From Nitrospirales bacterium (GTDB taxonomy: Bacteria; Nitrospirota; Nitrospiria; Nitrospirales; UBA8639): a DNA stretch of 64,000 nt. The notes under the pieces were generated by a model. The model saw only the letters and a list, made by a program, of their open reading frames with translations, did not search any database and was not told the origin of the DNA. This document shows, piece by piece, positions 42,498 through 49,829 of this stretch. The stretch covers positions 1,824,001 through 1,888,000 of the forward strand of contig CBDCWC010000003.1 in NCBI GenBank assembly GCA_965223295.1, read 5' to 3'. Position numbers and translations under genes: made by a program. Position 1 is the first letter of the stretch. The number at the start of each line of letters is the position of its first letter.

Positions 42498-42573
42498 AGG
42501 GGCATAGTGTCAACGGTTAGCACGTCGGTCTCCAAAACCGAAAGTCCGGGTTCGAATCCTGGTGCCCCTGCCA
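42498..42573 (+). tRNA. tRNA-Trp(CCA)
   Basis: CGGT-CTCCAAA-ACCG anticodon arm, GGTTCGAAT, CCA end; canonical position between rpmG and secE. Confidence 0.96.
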
Positions 42574-43057: not shown

Positions 43058-43594
43058 ATGGCGAGCCATTGGTATGTCATCCACACCTATGCCGGATTTG
43101 AGGGGAGAGTGCGAACGGGTATAGTTGAACGCGCCAATCAGTTGGGATTGGGAGAAATGGTTGGGCAGGTACTTGTTCCCACTGAGGATGTTGTGGAATT
43201 TAAGGAAGGAAAACGGCGGGCGTCCAAAAGAAAGTTTTTCCCAGGCTATGTCCTGCTTGAAGCAAATGGGCCGATTAGTGACGAGGTCGTCATGATGATA
43301 AAAGAGACGCCAAAGGTAACAGGATTTGTAGGAGGGGGAACTCGGCCAATTCCATTGGATCCAGAAGAAGTGTCAACTCTTCTGAGTCAACTCGAATCTG
43401 GAGTTTCGGCTCCAAGAGAGCTGGCAAGTTTTGCAAAGGGTGACAATGTCAGAATAGTTGATGGTCCATTTTTGGGCTTTAATGGAATGGTCGATGAAGT
43501 CGATCAAGACCATGGAAGAGTGAAGGCGTTGGTTAGTATTTTTGGGCGGTCAACTCCGGTGGAGTTGGCGTTTTCCCAAGTTGAGCGAGGATAG
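43058..43594 (+). CDS. nusG: Transcription factor NusG
   Basis: WYVIHTYAG, FPGYVL, TPKVTGFVG, KOW domain, IFGRSTPVE. Confidence 0.98.
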   Translation: MASHWYVIHTYAGFEGRVRTGIVERANQLGLGEMVGQVLVPTEDVVEFKEGKRRASKRKFFPGYVLLEANGPISDEVVMMIKETPKVTGFVGGGTRPIPLDPEEVSTLLSQLESGVSAPRELASFAKGDNVRIVDGPFLGFNGMVDEVDQDHGRVKALVSIFGRSTPVELAFSQVERG

Positions 43595-43670: not shown

Positions 43671-44096
43671 ATGGCCAAAGAAGTAACCAGTCAAATTAAA
43701 TTACAAATTCCGGCTGGAAAAGCCAATCCTGCTCCTCCTGTTGGCCCTTCCTTGGGGCAGCATGGCGTGAATATTATGGAATTTTGTAAGCAATTTAACG
43801 CGAAGACGCAGAAGCAGGAAGGCAGCATTATTCCTGTTGTGATTTCGGTATATAAAGATAGAAGTTTTAGTTTTATTATGAAAACGCCGCCAGCGTCAGA
43901 CCTGTTGAAAAAGGCTGCTGGTGTGATTAAAGGTTCTGGTATCCCACATAAAAGCAAGGTCGGGAAAATTACGCAGGCGCAATTAGAAGAGATTGCGAAA
44001 ATAAAGGCAGAAGATTTGAACGCCAGCGATATTCCTGCCGCCATGCAAGTGATTGCTGGGACTGCGCGGAGTATGGGTATCACGGTAGAAGGATAA
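43671..44096 (+). CDS. rplK: 50S ribosomal protein L11
   Basis: [17 protein letters not shown]. Confidence 0.99.
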
Positions 44097-44131: not shown

Positions 44132-44824
44132 GTGGGGAAAAAATTTAAAGAAGCCTTAAAAAAGGTGTCAAAGTCAGAATATTCGTTGGAAGAAGCCAGT
44201 GCATTAGTCAAGGAGTCTGCTTTTGCCAAGTTTGATGAATCTGTTGAAATGGCCTTGTCGCTTGGAGTCGACCCAAAGCGAGCAGATCAAATGGTACGTG
44301 GGACAACGGTCTTGCCTCATGGCACTGGGAAAAAGACTCGGATTTTGGTGATTGCCAAAGGTGAAAAGGAGCAGGAAGCTAGGGAGGCTGGTGCTGATTT
44401 TGCCGGGAATGAGGATCTTCTGCAGAAAATTCAGGATGGGTGGTTGGATTTTGATTCAATGATTGCCACTCCTGACATGATGGGTTCCGTGGGAAAGTTG
44501 GGAAAGGTTTTGGGGCCACGAGGGTTGATGCCAAATCCCAAAACGGGAACGGTGACATTTGAGGTAGGCAAAGCCATTCAGGAGATTCGGAAAGGCCGTG
44601 TGGAATATAAAGTTGATAAGGCTGGAAATGTGCATGTGCCAGTCGGAAAAGTCTCGTTTCAGGCTCAGCAAATCACCGACAATGTCAAGACGGTGTTTGA
44701 TTCCATCATGAAGGCCAAGCCTTCTTCCAGTAAAGGGAAGTATGTCAAGAGTGCGACGTTGTCGAGCACGATGGGGCCAGGGATTCGTCTGGATAGTGTG
44801 GCTCTTGCCAAGCAAGTTGGGTGA
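44132..44824 (+). CDS. rplA: 50S ribosomal protein L1
   Basis: [31 protein letters not shown]. Confidence 0.99.
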
Positions 44825-44853
44825 AATTTTAATCTTCGCAGGTGGGTTGGAGT

Positions 44854-45792
44854 ATGAAAAAATCTGATAAAGCAGAAGTTGTGTCAACCTTGCACGAACG
44901 GTTTGCTCGGGCGCGAATTGCTATTGTGACGGAATGTGCGGGAATGCCCGTCAATCAGGTCAATGATTTGCGAAAAAAGCTTCGTCAGGCTCAGGCGCAT
45001 TTGCATGTCGTTAAAAATACGTTAGCAGTTCGAGCCATCAGTGAGACTCCGCTGGTTCCGTTGCAACCCTTGCTTAAAGGGCAGTCCGTCATGGTCATTG
45101 GCTATGATGATCCGGTGTTGCCGACGAAAGTCGTACGCGATTTTATTAAAGCAGAAAAATGTGAAAAGAATTTGCAAATTAAGGGAGCAGTTCTAGATGG
45201 TGACGAGTTGGATCCTGCTCGGTTGTCCTCGGTGGCGGATTTGCCGTCAAAATCAGAATTGCTTGCCATGTTATTGTCAGCCTTTCAGGGCCCTATTCGA
45301 GGATTTGTTGTAGGGCTCAATCAGATAGTTAGAGGGTTTGTTGCAGTACTTGCGGCGATTCAGGAAAACAAAAGTAAGAAAGGAGAAGGAGAAATGGCTA
45401 CGAAGGAAGCAAAGCTGTCAAAAGAGGATATTATTAACGGGGTATCCAACTTGAGTGTGTTGGAGCTTTCAGAATTGGTGAAAGAATTAGAAGAGAAGTT
45501 TGGAGTAACGGCGGCAGCTCCTGTGGGAGTGGCTGTGGCGGCTTCGGGGGCTGCGGCAGCGCCTGCTGGAGAGGAAAAGACAGAGTTTGATGTAGTTTTG
45601 ACAGGAGCCCCGGCAGACAAAAAGATTCAGGCTATTAAGGTTGTCCGTGAAATTACGGGATTAGGTTTAAAAGAGGCTAAAGATTTGGTGGAAGGCGTGC
45701 CCAAGCCTGTGAAAGAAGGAGCGTCAAAGGAAGAGGCTGAGGCAATTCAGAAGAAGCTGCAGGAGGTTGGAGCGACGGTGGAAGTAAAATAG
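44854..45792 (+). CDS. rplJ: L10 fused in frame to L7/L12 (rplJ-rplL fusion ORF)
   Basis: L10 motifs ([17 protein letters not shown]) run without a stop codon into L12. Confidence 0.9.
45394..45792 (+). CDS. rplL: 50S ribosomal protein L7/L12 from an internal in-frame start
   Basis: [47 protein letters not shown] directly upstream of ATG 45394. Confidence 0.9.
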
Positions 45793-45863: not shown

Positions 45864-48800
45864 ATGCCACAATCAGCCTTTGAGGGCAGTGTACAACGAC
45901 ATAGTTTTTCGAAGATTCGCACCCATATTGTGATTCCTGATTTAGTTGAAGTTCAGCGTCGTTCCTATGAGGAGTTCTTGCAGGCGGAAACGCTACCTGA
46001 CCGACGTGCTGAGAAGGGGTTGCATGCTGCCTTTAAAAGTGTGTTCCCCATCATGGATTACAACAATTCAGCCATTTTGGAGTTTTCGAGTTATTCGTTG
46101 GGAACTCCAAAATACGATATTCGGGAATGTATTGAACAGGGAATGACTTTTGCGGCTCCCTTAAAGCTCCGTGTACGGTTGGTGGTCTTCGATCAGCAGG
46201 ATAAAGCGGTGAAAAACCGGGTGTTGGATGTTCGAGAGCAAGAGGTGTATGTCGGTGAGCTGCCGCTCATGACTGATCGGGGTACTTTTATCGTGAATGG
46301 GACGGAGCGCGTGGCTGTGAGCCAATTGCACCGGTCTCCAGGTCCATCATTTGGTCATGATAAGGGACGAACGCATTCCAGTGGCAAGGTGTTATTTTCT
46401 GGAAGGATTATTCCGTATCGTGGCTCTTGGTTAGATTTTGAATATGATGCCCGCGATATTCTATATGTCCGTATTGATCGCCGCCGAAAAATGCCCGCTA
46501 CGATTTTGCTCAAAGGTTTTGGTTTTAGTACAGATGATCTTTTGAAGATGTATTACCCTGTGGAGGAAGTTCGGGTCAGTAAGGGGATGTTGCTTCGCAA
46601 GTTGGATCCGGCGATTCATACTGGGTTGCGTGCCCCAACCGATTTAGTGGATAAAAGTTCAGGGGATGTATTGGCTAAAGAAGGTATGAAGTTAAATAAA
46701 ACCCTCATGGCTCGTGTGCGATCCGGAGGGATAAAGGAAATTTCTATTAAACCGGAAGATCTCGTGGGGAGGGCTGTCTTAACCGAACTCGTGGATTCGG
46801 AAAGCCAGGAAGTGATCTTGGAGAAGAATCAGCGTTTGACAGCCCCAGTCTTAGAGCAGATCCTGGAAGGTCGCGTAGAGTCTTTTAAAGTCATTTATTT
46901 GGATAGTCCAACTACCAGCCCTGTTATTTTGGATACCTTGGAGGCAGAACGCACCAATTCTAAAGAAGAAGCGTGGGTGGAAATTTATAAGCGGCTTCGT
47001 CCCGGAGAAATGCCCTCAATCGAATCAGCTAAGCTGTTATTTGAGAATCTTTTCCTTAATCCCAAGCGCTATGACCTGTCTCCCGTTGGTCGCTTGAAAA
47101 TGAATAAGCGATTTAACTTAGACTTGTCGTTAGAGCAACGAACATTGTCGGCTCAAGATATTGTTGAAGTGGTGCGGTGTTTGGTCGATCTCAAGGCTGG
47201 TAAAGGTGAAGTAGATGACATCGATCATTTAGGGAATCGGCGCGTGCGCTCTGTGGGGGAGCTATTGGAAAATCAAATTCGAATCGGTTTGGCAAGAATG
47301 GAGCGTAGCATTAAAGAGCGCATGAATCTTTTAGATATGGACACAGTGCTGCCGCATGACCTTATTAATGCTAAGCCTATAGTGGCAGCCATTAAGGAAT
47401 TTTTTGCAGGCAGTCAATTGTCTCAATTTATGGACCAAACGAATCCTTTGGCAGAAATTACGCATAAGCGGCGTCTATCTGCCTTGGGTCCTGGAGGTCT
47501 GACTCGAGAGCGAGCCGGTTTCGAGGTTCGTGATGTTCATCCGTCGCACTATAGCCGCATATGCCCGATTGAAACGCCAGAAGGCCCGAATATTGGGTTG
47601 ATCACATCTCTGGCGACCTATGCTCGGATTAACGAATTTGGCTTTATTGAGGCACCTTTTAGAAAAGTGCGAAAAGGTCGTGTGTCTGATGATGTGGAAT
47701 TTCTCTCGCCGATAGATGGTGATCAGGTTGTCATTGCCCAGGCCAATACTGCAATGAGTAAGGACGGGGCTCTTACCTCTGAGACGATTACCGCGCGGGA
47801 AGCGGGGGAGTTTGTCACGACCACGCCTGATACCGTCGATTATCTTGATGTTTCTCCAAAACAGGTTGTGAGTGTGGCGACAGCGCTCATTCCATTTTTG
47901 GAGCATGATGATGCCAATCGCGCGCTCATGGGTTCCAATATGCAGCGGCAAGCCGTTCCAACGGTTAAAAGTGAATCGCCTTTGGTTGGGACCGGAATGG
48001 AAGCCGTGGTGGCCAGGGATTCAGGGTATTTGGCTATTGCCCAGCGAGATGGAATTGTCGAGTCCGTGGATGCTCGACGAATTGTGGTTCGAGCTGGCAG
48101 TAAAGAAAAAGACGTGCAGAAAAAGAGTTCCCGAATTCTCGACACCTATGATTTAGTGAAATTTCAACGTACCAATCAAAATACCTGTATTATTCAGACG
48201 CCTATCGTACGAGTAGGGCAACCGGTGAAGAAGGGGCAAGTGTTGGCGGATGGGCCGTCGATGGATCGTGGAGAATTGGCTTTGGGTAAAAATGTTCTGG
48301 TCGCCTTTATGCCTTGGGGCGGCTACAACTATGAGGACGCCATACTATTGAGTGAAAAATTAGTGCGAGAAGATACCTTCACGTCTATTCATATTGAAGA
48401 ATTTGAAGTTGAAGCGCGAGATACCAAGTTAGGGAAAGAGGAGATTACAAGAGATATTCCAAACTTGGGAGAAGAGGCTCTTCGCAATTTGGATGAAAGT
48501 GGAATTGTTCGCATTGGAGCGGAAGTGAAGCCTGGAGATATTTTGGTTGGCAAGGTCACGCCTAAGGGGGAGACTCAGTTGACCCCTGAAGAAAAGCTTC
48601 TGCGAGCCATTTTTGGAGAGAAAGCGGGAGATGTGAAGGATACGTCTTTGCAAGTTCCTCCGGGCATCGAGGGAATTGTGGTTGATGTTAAAATATTTTC
48701 CCGTAAAGGGGTCGATAAAGATGAGCGATCTCGTACGATCGAAACCGATGATCGTGTGAAGGTGGAGCGTGACTATCAAGAGGAATTGCGGATTATCGAA

Positions 48801-49829
48801 GAAGAGCGGAATCGTAAGATTCGCAAGTTATTGTTAGGACAGTTTGTTGGGCGGGATTTGATGGACCCTGATAGCGGTGAAGTCATTCTGAAGAAAAAAG
48901 GCCGTATTACCGCGGATGTACTCCGGAAGCTCACAGATGATGATGCGAGGCGGGTCATTTTAGCTGATGCCGAGGAGCAGAAAAAACTTGATGAAATCGA
49001 ACGAGAAGCCAAAGATCAAATTGAAATTCTGCAAACGGAGTATGACGAGAAGGTGGGGCGGCTGCGTCGAGGGGACGAGTTGCCGCCAGGAGTGATCAAG
49101 CTGGTCAAAGTGTATTTAGCGATTAAGCGGAAAATTGCGGTTGGGGACAAAATGGCCGGCCGACATGGGAATAAAGGTGTGGTGTCTCGGATCATGCCGG
49201 AAGAAGATATGCCGCATCTTCCGGACGGAACTCCTGTCGAAATTGTCTTGAACCCGTTGGGCGTACCTTCCAGGATGAATGTTGGGCAAATTTTGGAGAC
49301 TCATCTGGGGTGGGCCTCTCATGCTTTGGGTATTAAGGTCGAAACTCCTGTTTTTGATGGAGCATCGGAAAAAGAGATCAAGGACCTCTTAGCGAAGGCG
49401 AATTTACCTGAGTCTGGTCAATCTATCGTGTATGATGGTAGGACGGGCGAGCCCTTTAAGAGTCCCGTCACGGTTGGATACATGTATATGCTGAAGCTGC
49501 ATCATTTGGTGGATGATAAAATTCATGCGCGGTCCATTGGGCCTTATTCTTTGGTCACGCAGCAGCCCTTGGGTGGGAAAGCGCAATTCGGTGGTCAACG
49601 CTTGGGAGAAATGGAGGTCTGGGCGTTACAAGCCTATGGGGCGGCTTCCACGCTGCAGGAATTTCTCACTGTCAAATCTGATGATGTCCCGGGGCGTTCC
49701 CGTATGTATGAGGCCATTGTGAAAGGGGAAAATTTCCTCGAGCCTGGCTTGCCTGAGTCCTTTAATGTGTTAGTAAAAGAGTTGCAGAGTTTAGGGTTGG
49801 ATGTGGAGCTGATTAAATCTGCGGAATAG
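45864..49829 (+). CDS. rpoB: RNA polymerase beta subunit
   Basis: [37 protein letters not shown]. Confidence 0.99.

Follow-up and report, generated by a model that had tools for sequence, protein, structure and literature searches.

The rplJ-rplL locus

The locus described here lies on the forward strand of the window, a stretch of 64,000 nucleotides from the genome of a Nitrospirales bacterium, and it is occupied by the ribosomal stalk genes rplJ and rplL, which encode uL10 (L10) and bL12 (L7/L12). ORF listing and domain searches place both genes in one frame of 312 codons plus a TAG stop, in which a complete uL10, a short linker and a complete bL12 follow one another. The genes and features of the locus are the following:

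43058-43594, + strand: nusG (NCBIfam TIGR00922 above cut-off)
43671-44096, + strand: rplK, encoding L11 (NCBIfam TIGR01632 above cut-off)
44132-44824, + strand: rplA, encoding L1 (NCBIfam TIGR01169 above cut-off)
44854-45792, + strand: single rplJ-rplL frame (three Pfam domains in one chain; both NCBIfam equivalogs above cut-off)
44854-45393, + strand: uL10 part, codons 1-180 (NCBIfam NF000955, alignment to 1zav_A, AlphaFold2 helix)
45373-45420, + strand: predicted flexible linker, residues 174-189, SKKGEGE followed by MATKEAKLS (AlphaFold2, without secondary structure)
45380-45393, + strand: doubled Shine-Dalgarno sequence AAGGAGAAGGAGAA, translated as K-G-E-G-E; 8 nt separate its conserved distal AAGGAG from the ATG
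45394-45396, + strand: internal ATG, the ancestral rplL start codon
45394-45789, + strand: bL12 part, 132 codons, with N-domain, Ala/Gly-rich hinge and C-domain (TIGR00855, PF16320, PF00542)
45864-49829, + strand: rpoB (TIGR02013, 1880 bits), after a 71-nt spacer behind the fused frame

The operon order nusG-rplKA-rplJL-rpoB is the usual arrangement. Between 44854 and 45790 there are no in-frame stops at all, so that nothing ends rplJ before the start of rplL, as a pair of cistrons would require. The uL10 part opens at ATG 44854, runs for 180 codons and continues directly into MATKEAKL, and the frame closes at the TAG at 45790-45792. The enclosing ORF given by the listing, which begins at an upstream GTG (44842-45792, 316 aa), is likewise without an in-frame stop, and the TAA present at 45375-45377 is out of frame. 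Computed from the window, the predicted mass of the fusion protein is 33.2 kDa, and that of the bL12 part alone would be 13.6 kDa if it were made separately.

Both parts of the frame correspond to whole proteins. In the single translated chain, Pfam recognises Ribosomal_L10 at residues 1-98 (PF00466, 89.2 bits, cut-off 22.8), Ribosomal_L12_N at residues 190-237 (PF16320, 81.3 bits) and the Ribosomal_L12 C-domain at residues 245-312 (PF00542, 100.3 bits). The uL10 part matches the NCBIfam equivalog NF000955 with 157.8 bits (cut-off 85) over residues 5-173, corresponding to model positions 2-167 of 168, and the bL12 part matches TIGR00855 with 164.7 bits (cut-off 84.4) over residues 186-312, corresponding to model positions 2-125 of 125. 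Since the two equivalog models are matched over nearly their full length, uL10 and bL12 are complete proteins and not remnants. The bL12 part, as a full-length equivalog, possesses the N-terminal dimerisation domain, the hinge and the C-terminal factor-binding domain that mark the family, and no sequence test applied sets either half apart from ordinary uL10 and bL12 proteins. An earlier note on this DNA had read the region as an in-frame L10-L12 fusion; the single frame and the two complete equivalogs confirm this, and the positions on which that reading was built (ATG 44854, 180 uL10 codons, L12 ATG 45394, linker string at 45380-45393) are all correct. No second L10 or L12 gene was found in a search of the genome, which returned one PF00542 match and one PF00466 match, both in the fused frame.

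Few other elements were recognised at the locus. In a search for an rplJ leader RNA or another Rfam element around it, only a tRNA at 42498-42570 exceeded the threshold, and a match to a plastid family (E 0.51) was dismissed as noise. No promoter-like site was found on the + strand between the uL10 and bL12 parts. As a candidate internal terminator, one weak terminator-like hairpin at 45644-45659 was considered and rejected, as shuffled sequences yield as much.

The locus resembles the canonical rplJ-rplL pair in most respects. The stalk formed by L7/L12 recruits every translational GTPase and carries 4, 6 or 8 copies of the protein, the canonical cases being L10(L7/L12)4 in E. coli and L10(L7/L12)6 in Thermotoga maritima (PDB 1ZAV). 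The same complete families are found here in the same order and in the same nusG-rplKA-rplJL-rpoB context; helix alpha-8 of uL10 aligns without gaps to that of T. maritima, and rplL has its own ribosome-binding site, which is predicted to be stronger than that of rplJ. Unlike the canonical pair, the Nitrospirales genes are joined without a stop or spacer, and the ribosome-binding site of rplL forms part of the coding sequence.

Distribution and origin of the fused frame

The fusion is not a base-call or assembly artefact. That a one-base insertion or deletion in an A-rich run conceals a true stop in this homopolymer-rich stretch has a negligible probability, given that four independent contig sets cross the junction with 0 gaps and that the open frame is retained in more than 150 genomes, whose protein identities are 51-91% and whose changes in linker length are themselves in frame. 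The contig sets, taken from Logan, represent four runs that belong to three studies, and one of the runs may be the source sample; they span 45360-45396, the interval in which the earlier note had advised a look at the reads, without inserted or missing letters. Among relatives at 65-84% DNA identity (41), 30 loci were available, of which 29 read from the L10 C-terminus into L12 without a stop or a change of frame, while the 30th ends at a contig end. The concern, voiced in the same note, that the TAA near 45375 betrays a base-call error finds no echo in related genes, as a TAA occupies this position in only 3 of 76 unique fused genes and is not a conserved feature.

The junction was compared across the phylum in 301 Nitrospirota genomes, 86 of them from the order Nitrospirales and 215 from outside it. 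Within the order, 83 of the 86 genomes contain a stop-free match to residues 1-312; in two the match is split at contig ends, and one is without a match. A larger order sample comprised 401 Nitrospirales genomes, 367 of them with a match, and stop status was taken from 150 of the matches, the other 225 not being included. Of these 150, 149 are stop-free over residues 1-312 (one over 2-312), and the remaining one, also without a stop, is truncated at a contig end. Two genomes flagged as unpublished (G495 and G609) are among the 150, and no conclusion depends on either.

The apparent exceptions within the order have simple causes. A recheck of ten genomes whose matches were weak or double found seven pieces that cover the junction stop-free, the junction being unassembled in the other three; these cases are set down to breaks at contig ends or, in G598, to a frame change inside the N-terminal part of L10. 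Thirty-four of the 401 genomes have no match, and five of them, from one genus (g5), were rechecked. In these five, PF00542 gave nothing above the cut-off. Searched with a 3.5-kb stretch of rplA-rpoB DNA from a congener, G512 alone gave a match, which is confined to the rpoB part, where the locus ends. The rplA-rpoB region is therefore absent from the available sequence of these five genomes, which makes them uninformative. A stop was found in no readable Nitrospirales junction, so the comparison across Nitrospirota proposed in the earlier note came out in favour of the fusion, and all four sampled families of the order (f1, f2, f3 and f4) carry it. On the genomes sampled, the fusion is a fixed trait of the order Nitrospirales, to which Nitrospira belongs. 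The covalent L10-L12 chain appears to be the rule in an order that includes globally important nitrite oxidisers and the comammox Nitrospira.

The situation outside the order is different. None of the matches listed from the 215 Nitrospirota genomes outside Nitrospirales is stop-free across both parts. Of the 47 genomes in which a single match covers the two genes, 45 carry one to four stops; the rest of the genomes have L10 and L12 as separate matches. In all 15 outgroup junctions that were read, L10 ends in a stop and a GGAG-type site lies in the spacer that leads to the L12 ATG; this spacer is about 27-60 nt long in the six cases in which the two genes share a frame. As stop and spacer persist in other orders and classes of the phylum, the fusion is a derived trait, and these comparisons indicate that it was fixed at the base of Nitrospirales through the loss of these two elements. 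The old rplL ribosome-binding site is now in frame, within the last codons of uL10.

The predicted internal start site

The retention of the ribosome-binding site can be followed in 76 unique fused genes, all of which have ATG as the L12 start. Upstream of it, AAGGAG or AAGGAGG is present in 69 and GGAG in 75. The bias extends to the choice among synonymous codons, since the Gly codon at position -4 is GGA in 72 of 75 cases, a count that overstates the number of independent events because the genomes are related, as do others of its kind, compared with 413 of 1815 (23%) of the other Gly codons in the same genes. Fourfold-degenerate sites are identical at a level of only 0.24-0.32 between families, which is the random level, and of 0.37-0.48 within a genus. 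With synonymous sites at random-level identity between families, the conservation of the Shine-Dalgarno hexamer is not due to inertia. The GGA bias also argues against the view that the conservation of K-G-E-G-E is wholly a requirement for a protein linker, even if such a need could account for part of it.

The properties predicted for the mRNA point in the same direction. In the window from -30 to +20 around the internal ATG, the mean minimum free energy of folding is -2.7 kcal/mol versus -11.5 kcal/mol elsewhere in the same genes, and in 68 of the 76 genes this region is among the weakest-folded 10%. The predicted pairing of the Shine-Dalgarno sequence amounts to -8.75 kcal/mol at the internal site and to -6.76 kcal/mol at rplJ, the internal site being the stronger in 64 of 66 genes; the 16S rRNA of the genome has the canonical anti-Shine-Dalgarno tail at its 3′ end. 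In addition, the residue that follows the internal Met is A, S, P or T in all 24 aligned sequences, as at a processed N-terminus.

On the strength of these comparative signals, the internal ribosome-binding site and its ATG are kept by selection at the RNA level, and the frame holds what is expected of an ORF with two products, namely an internal ribosome-binding site and start codon under selection. The claim of the earlier note that the fusion retains an internal ribosome-binding site is thereby strengthened, as the site is conserved beyond amino-acid need, lies in unstructured mRNA and is predicted to be stronger than that of rplJ. Ribosomes would also initiate at AAGGAG-N8-ATG to produce a free bL12 of 13.6 kDa, and initiation at this position would probably be more frequent than at rplJ.

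Similar arrangements are known in E. coli, in which infB, clpB and cheA yield long and short products from one frame by internal initiation. Like them, the Nitrospirales gene has an internal Shine-Dalgarno sequence and ATG in a longer frame, and the expected long and short forms would have a common C-terminus. It differs from them in that the short form would be the product of an ancestral free-standing gene and would be needed in several-fold excess, and in that the use of the internal start is deduced from comparison. The fusion offers, in this sense, a clean case of an intergenic ribosome-binding site that has survived as codons.

The tether, the stalk and related fusions

The copy number and assembly of the stalk have been studied for decades with L10 and L12 as separate proteins, and its stoichiometry was reportedly surveyed by Davydov and colleagues in 2013. 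In the Nitrospirales gene, there is no stop between the rplJ ATG and the end of rplL, so uL10 would always be made together with a bL12, joined to it by a linker of about 16 residues. Translation from the rplJ ATG would in this manner attach one bL12 to each uL10 chain, in a protein of 33.2 kDa. Of the eight codons before the internal ATG, 6.3 on average are one substitution away from a stop, so that one change would bring back the two-gene arrangement of the ancestor; yet no genome of the order has one, which indicates that the tether itself is under selection. Linker length varies by two residues across the order and always in frame. Taken together, the fusion is real, ancient and order-wide, and it is apparently under selection.

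AlphaFold2 gives a single helix alpha-8 at residues 133-173 (nt 45250-45372), a coil at residues 174-189 and then the two helices of the N-domain, in a monomer model of low confidence (mean pLDDT 67.7, pTM 0.45, with pLDDT below 50 over residues 150-192) that gives no docking position for the tethered N-domain. Residues 4-174 of uL10 align with residues 6-179 of the T. maritima L10 chain 1zav_A, whose structure was solved in complex with L12 N-domains, and the helix alpha-8 region is gap-free, through residue 174; alignment and model therefore agree on the C-terminal helix alpha-8 of a uL10, to which bL12 is predicted to bind. In T. maritima, this helix of L10 binds three L12 dimers. A helix alpha-8 of the Thermotoga type is long enough that several free copies of bL12 would still be needed, and by homology the stalk would consist of one fusion and about five free bL12. 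The N-domains of bL12 work as dimers, and a free bL12 would be the partner of the tethered one at the last of the binding segments, onto which a coil of about 16 residues is probably long enough to fold back.

The explanation that best accounts for these observations, and which we regard as probable, is that of a genuine, selectively maintained and order-wide fusion, from which an obligatory L10-L12 protein would be produced along with free L12 by internal initiation. The stalk base would then probably carry one covalently attached arm. As far as sequence reaches, the reading of the earlier note is supported; fusion protein and free L12 would both accumulate, the fusion would stay uncleaved in the ribosome, and the stoichiometry of the stalk might, as that note suggests, be unusual.

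The main rival is a polyprotein that is cut after its synthesis. Proteolysis, ahead of assembly or in the course of it, would release uL10 from bL12, the mature stalk would be ordinary, and the fusion would only couple the expression of the two proteins, a use for which the ubiquitin-ribosomal-protein fusions of eukaryotes provide a precedent. The linker is predicted by AlphaFold2 to be flexible and exposed, and its strong sequence conservation is also compatible with a cleavage site. Nevertheless, this conservation is already accounted for at the codon level by the Shine-Dalgarno sequence and its GGA bias. Moreover, a stop codon would be an equivalent state that is easily reached from most codons of the junction and is nonetheless absent from the order, so that cutting leaves unexplained why the stop never returns. 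On balance, we consider this alternative quite unlikely.

It is also very improbable that ribosomes leave the frame at the junction to release uL10 alone, either by a frameshift into an out-of-frame stop or by drop-off at the internal Shine-Dalgarno sequence. The A-rich runs before the junction and the out-of-frame TAA at 45375-45377 would suit such an exit, but the first out-of-frame stop is scattered across the 76 genes, with 12 different positions for the +1 frame and 14 for the +2 frame, and inspection by eye found no canonical slippery heptamer in the window sequence. Without a conserved out-of-frame stop, a programmed frameshift is an unlikely route. There is, finally, hardly any chance that the internal site is unused and the fusion is the sole product, in a stalk with far fewer copies of bL12. 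A single ORF is most simply read in this way, and the annotation by most gene callers is of just one protein, 310-314 aa long; no specific support for this reading was found. It is opposed by the conservation of the ATG and Shine-Dalgarno sequence against saturated synonymous sites, by the unstructured start region, by a long helix alpha-8 with room for several bL12 dimers, by the lack of another bL12 gene and by the dimeric nature of the N-domains.

If the preferred reading of an obligatory fusion with additional free bL12 is followed, a functional parallel lies outside bacteria. The archaeal and eukaryotic uL10 (P0) has at its C-terminus a tail of the kind found in the stalk proteins P1/P2, beside arms that are encoded separately, and the Nitrospirales stalk base would similarly bear one factor-recruiting arm of its own. 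The likeness is a functional analogy. Unlike in P0, the appended part is a whole bL12, with N-domain, hinge and C-domain, and not the tail of a P-protein; in addition, the Nitrospirales fusion has an independent and recent origin in one bacterial order, and the resemblance is not homologous. A P0-type extension (Pfam Ribosomal_60s) was not found in the fused chain, in which the Pfam scan recognised L10, L12_N and L12 only. The fusion could accordingly be viewed as a bacterial convergence on the archaeal and eukaryotic P0 design, and also as a natural experiment on the dependence of the stalk on the exchange of free L12.

Putative fusions of the same kind occur sporadically elsewhere. A search of 1.84 billion proteins returned, among the best 150 representatives, 22 L10-L12 fusions that match in one stretch, with lengths of 297-332 aa and identities of 35-58%. 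One of them (P0001, 58%) is a Nitrospirales protein, as judged by the names in its cluster, and the other 21 are at 35-46% identity. The named sources are Dehalococcoidia/Chloroflexota (four members, from several sources) and Armatimonadota; one unnamed metagenome fusion is present on 12 contigs, the remaining fusions are singletons, and most clusters are tiny or hold a single sequence. These sporadic fusions match the whole query in a single stretch, as the Nitrospirales proteins do, but mostly at an identity of only 35-46%. Many of them have a G-G that stands two to four residues ahead of the Met of bL12 and that an in-frame GGAGG would encode. In species-representative genomes of other phyla, by contrast, 35 of 35 examined loci with end-to-end matches have stops between the L10 and L12 parts, which implies that L10-L12 fusions are uncommon.

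A bolder and rather unlikely reading would make of these observations a new type of stalk, with a P0-like base on which the tethered bL12 is either a seventh arm beside three free dimers or the seed for an ordered assembly of the last dimer, and would regard the related fusions elsewhere as a sign that this is a recurrent, favoured solution. If it were true, no uL10 would ever occur without its bL12, and the gene itself would fix part of the L10:L12 ratio.

The fusion has already been noticed in annotation, and no study of it was found in the literature searched: the search yielded no work on an L10-L12 fusion in the main texts covered, among them PMC3578206, PMC6375957 and PMC13001810. In GenBank, the cultured Nitrospira sp. 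KM1 has a protein of 311 aa named 'Fused 50S ribosomal proteins L10 and L7/L12', which is 91% identical to the family f2 query. This existing name and the fixation of the fusion throughout the order both go beyond what the earlier note had reported. Cultured strains carry the fusion and therefore provide a directly testable system. Other GenBank records of the fusion are named L7/L12, L10 or hypothetical, or have only a 133-aa L7/L12 annotated, an inconsistency of naming that can disturb marker-gene sets and proteome searches.

Surroundings of the fused gene

Two features lie close to the single rplJ-rplL frame (44854-45792, plus strand) in the window:
42498-42570, tRNA gene (60.9 bits), upstream of the nusG-rplKA-rplJL cluster
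44825-44853, rplA-rplJ spacer, 29 nt

A search against Rfam did not find an L10-leader RNA at the spacer between rplA and rplJ, and the predicted Shine-Dalgarno site at the rplJ start is weaker than that at the internal rplL start.

Unmatched and interrupted genes in Nitrospirota assemblies

Among the Nitrospirota assemblies drawn for comparison, five genomes of one genus (G235, G400, G512, G514 and G520) yield no match to the L12 C-terminal domain above the cut-off. Their completeness is 98-99%, and one of the five is a single contig. The 3.5-kb rplA-rpoB DNA of a congener is likewise unmatched in all five, except for a piece of rpoB in G512, where the retrieved locus ends. The rplA-rpoB region thus appears to be absent from the available sequence of these genomes. 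Many short-read assemblies break within the fused gene itself (G024, G028, G214, G426, G470, G508, G511, G521 and G567), often at about residues 220-245, which correspond to the Ala/Gly-rich hinge of bL12; therefore, this hinge seems to be a weak point for assembly. In another assembly, the N-terminal part of L10 is matched in two frames on one contig (G598:C22:84515-85445; residues 1-76 and 72-312). This frame change inside L10 may be either an assembly error or real, and the L10-L12 junction of the same gene is open.

Related proteins under other lineage labels

The fused gene, with a junction of the Nitrospirales type, is also present at 63% identity in a metagenome-assembled genome labelled as a Nitrospinota bacterium (locus L116); this assignment may be wrong, for the contig or for the label. 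Apparent L10-L12 fusions from other lineages, 297-332 aa long, occur among the best 150 representatives matching the fused protein (in the P0003-P0031 range, P0048 and P0058), the named members belonging to Dehalococcoidia/Chloroflexota and Armatimonadota. Many of them carry Gly-Gly 2-4 residues N-terminal to the L12 Met, a pair that, judged from sequence, looks like a GGAGG site translated as codons; in P0011 the Met at the junction is missing. The same 150 representatives include six metagenome proteins of 322-1056 aa (P0002, P0008, P0012, P0033, P0013 and P0020), in which the bL12 C-terminal domain (PF00542) is repeated in tandem 4-7 times, accompanied in P0012 by LRV/HEAT repeats; the domain search detected no L12 N-terminal domain in them.
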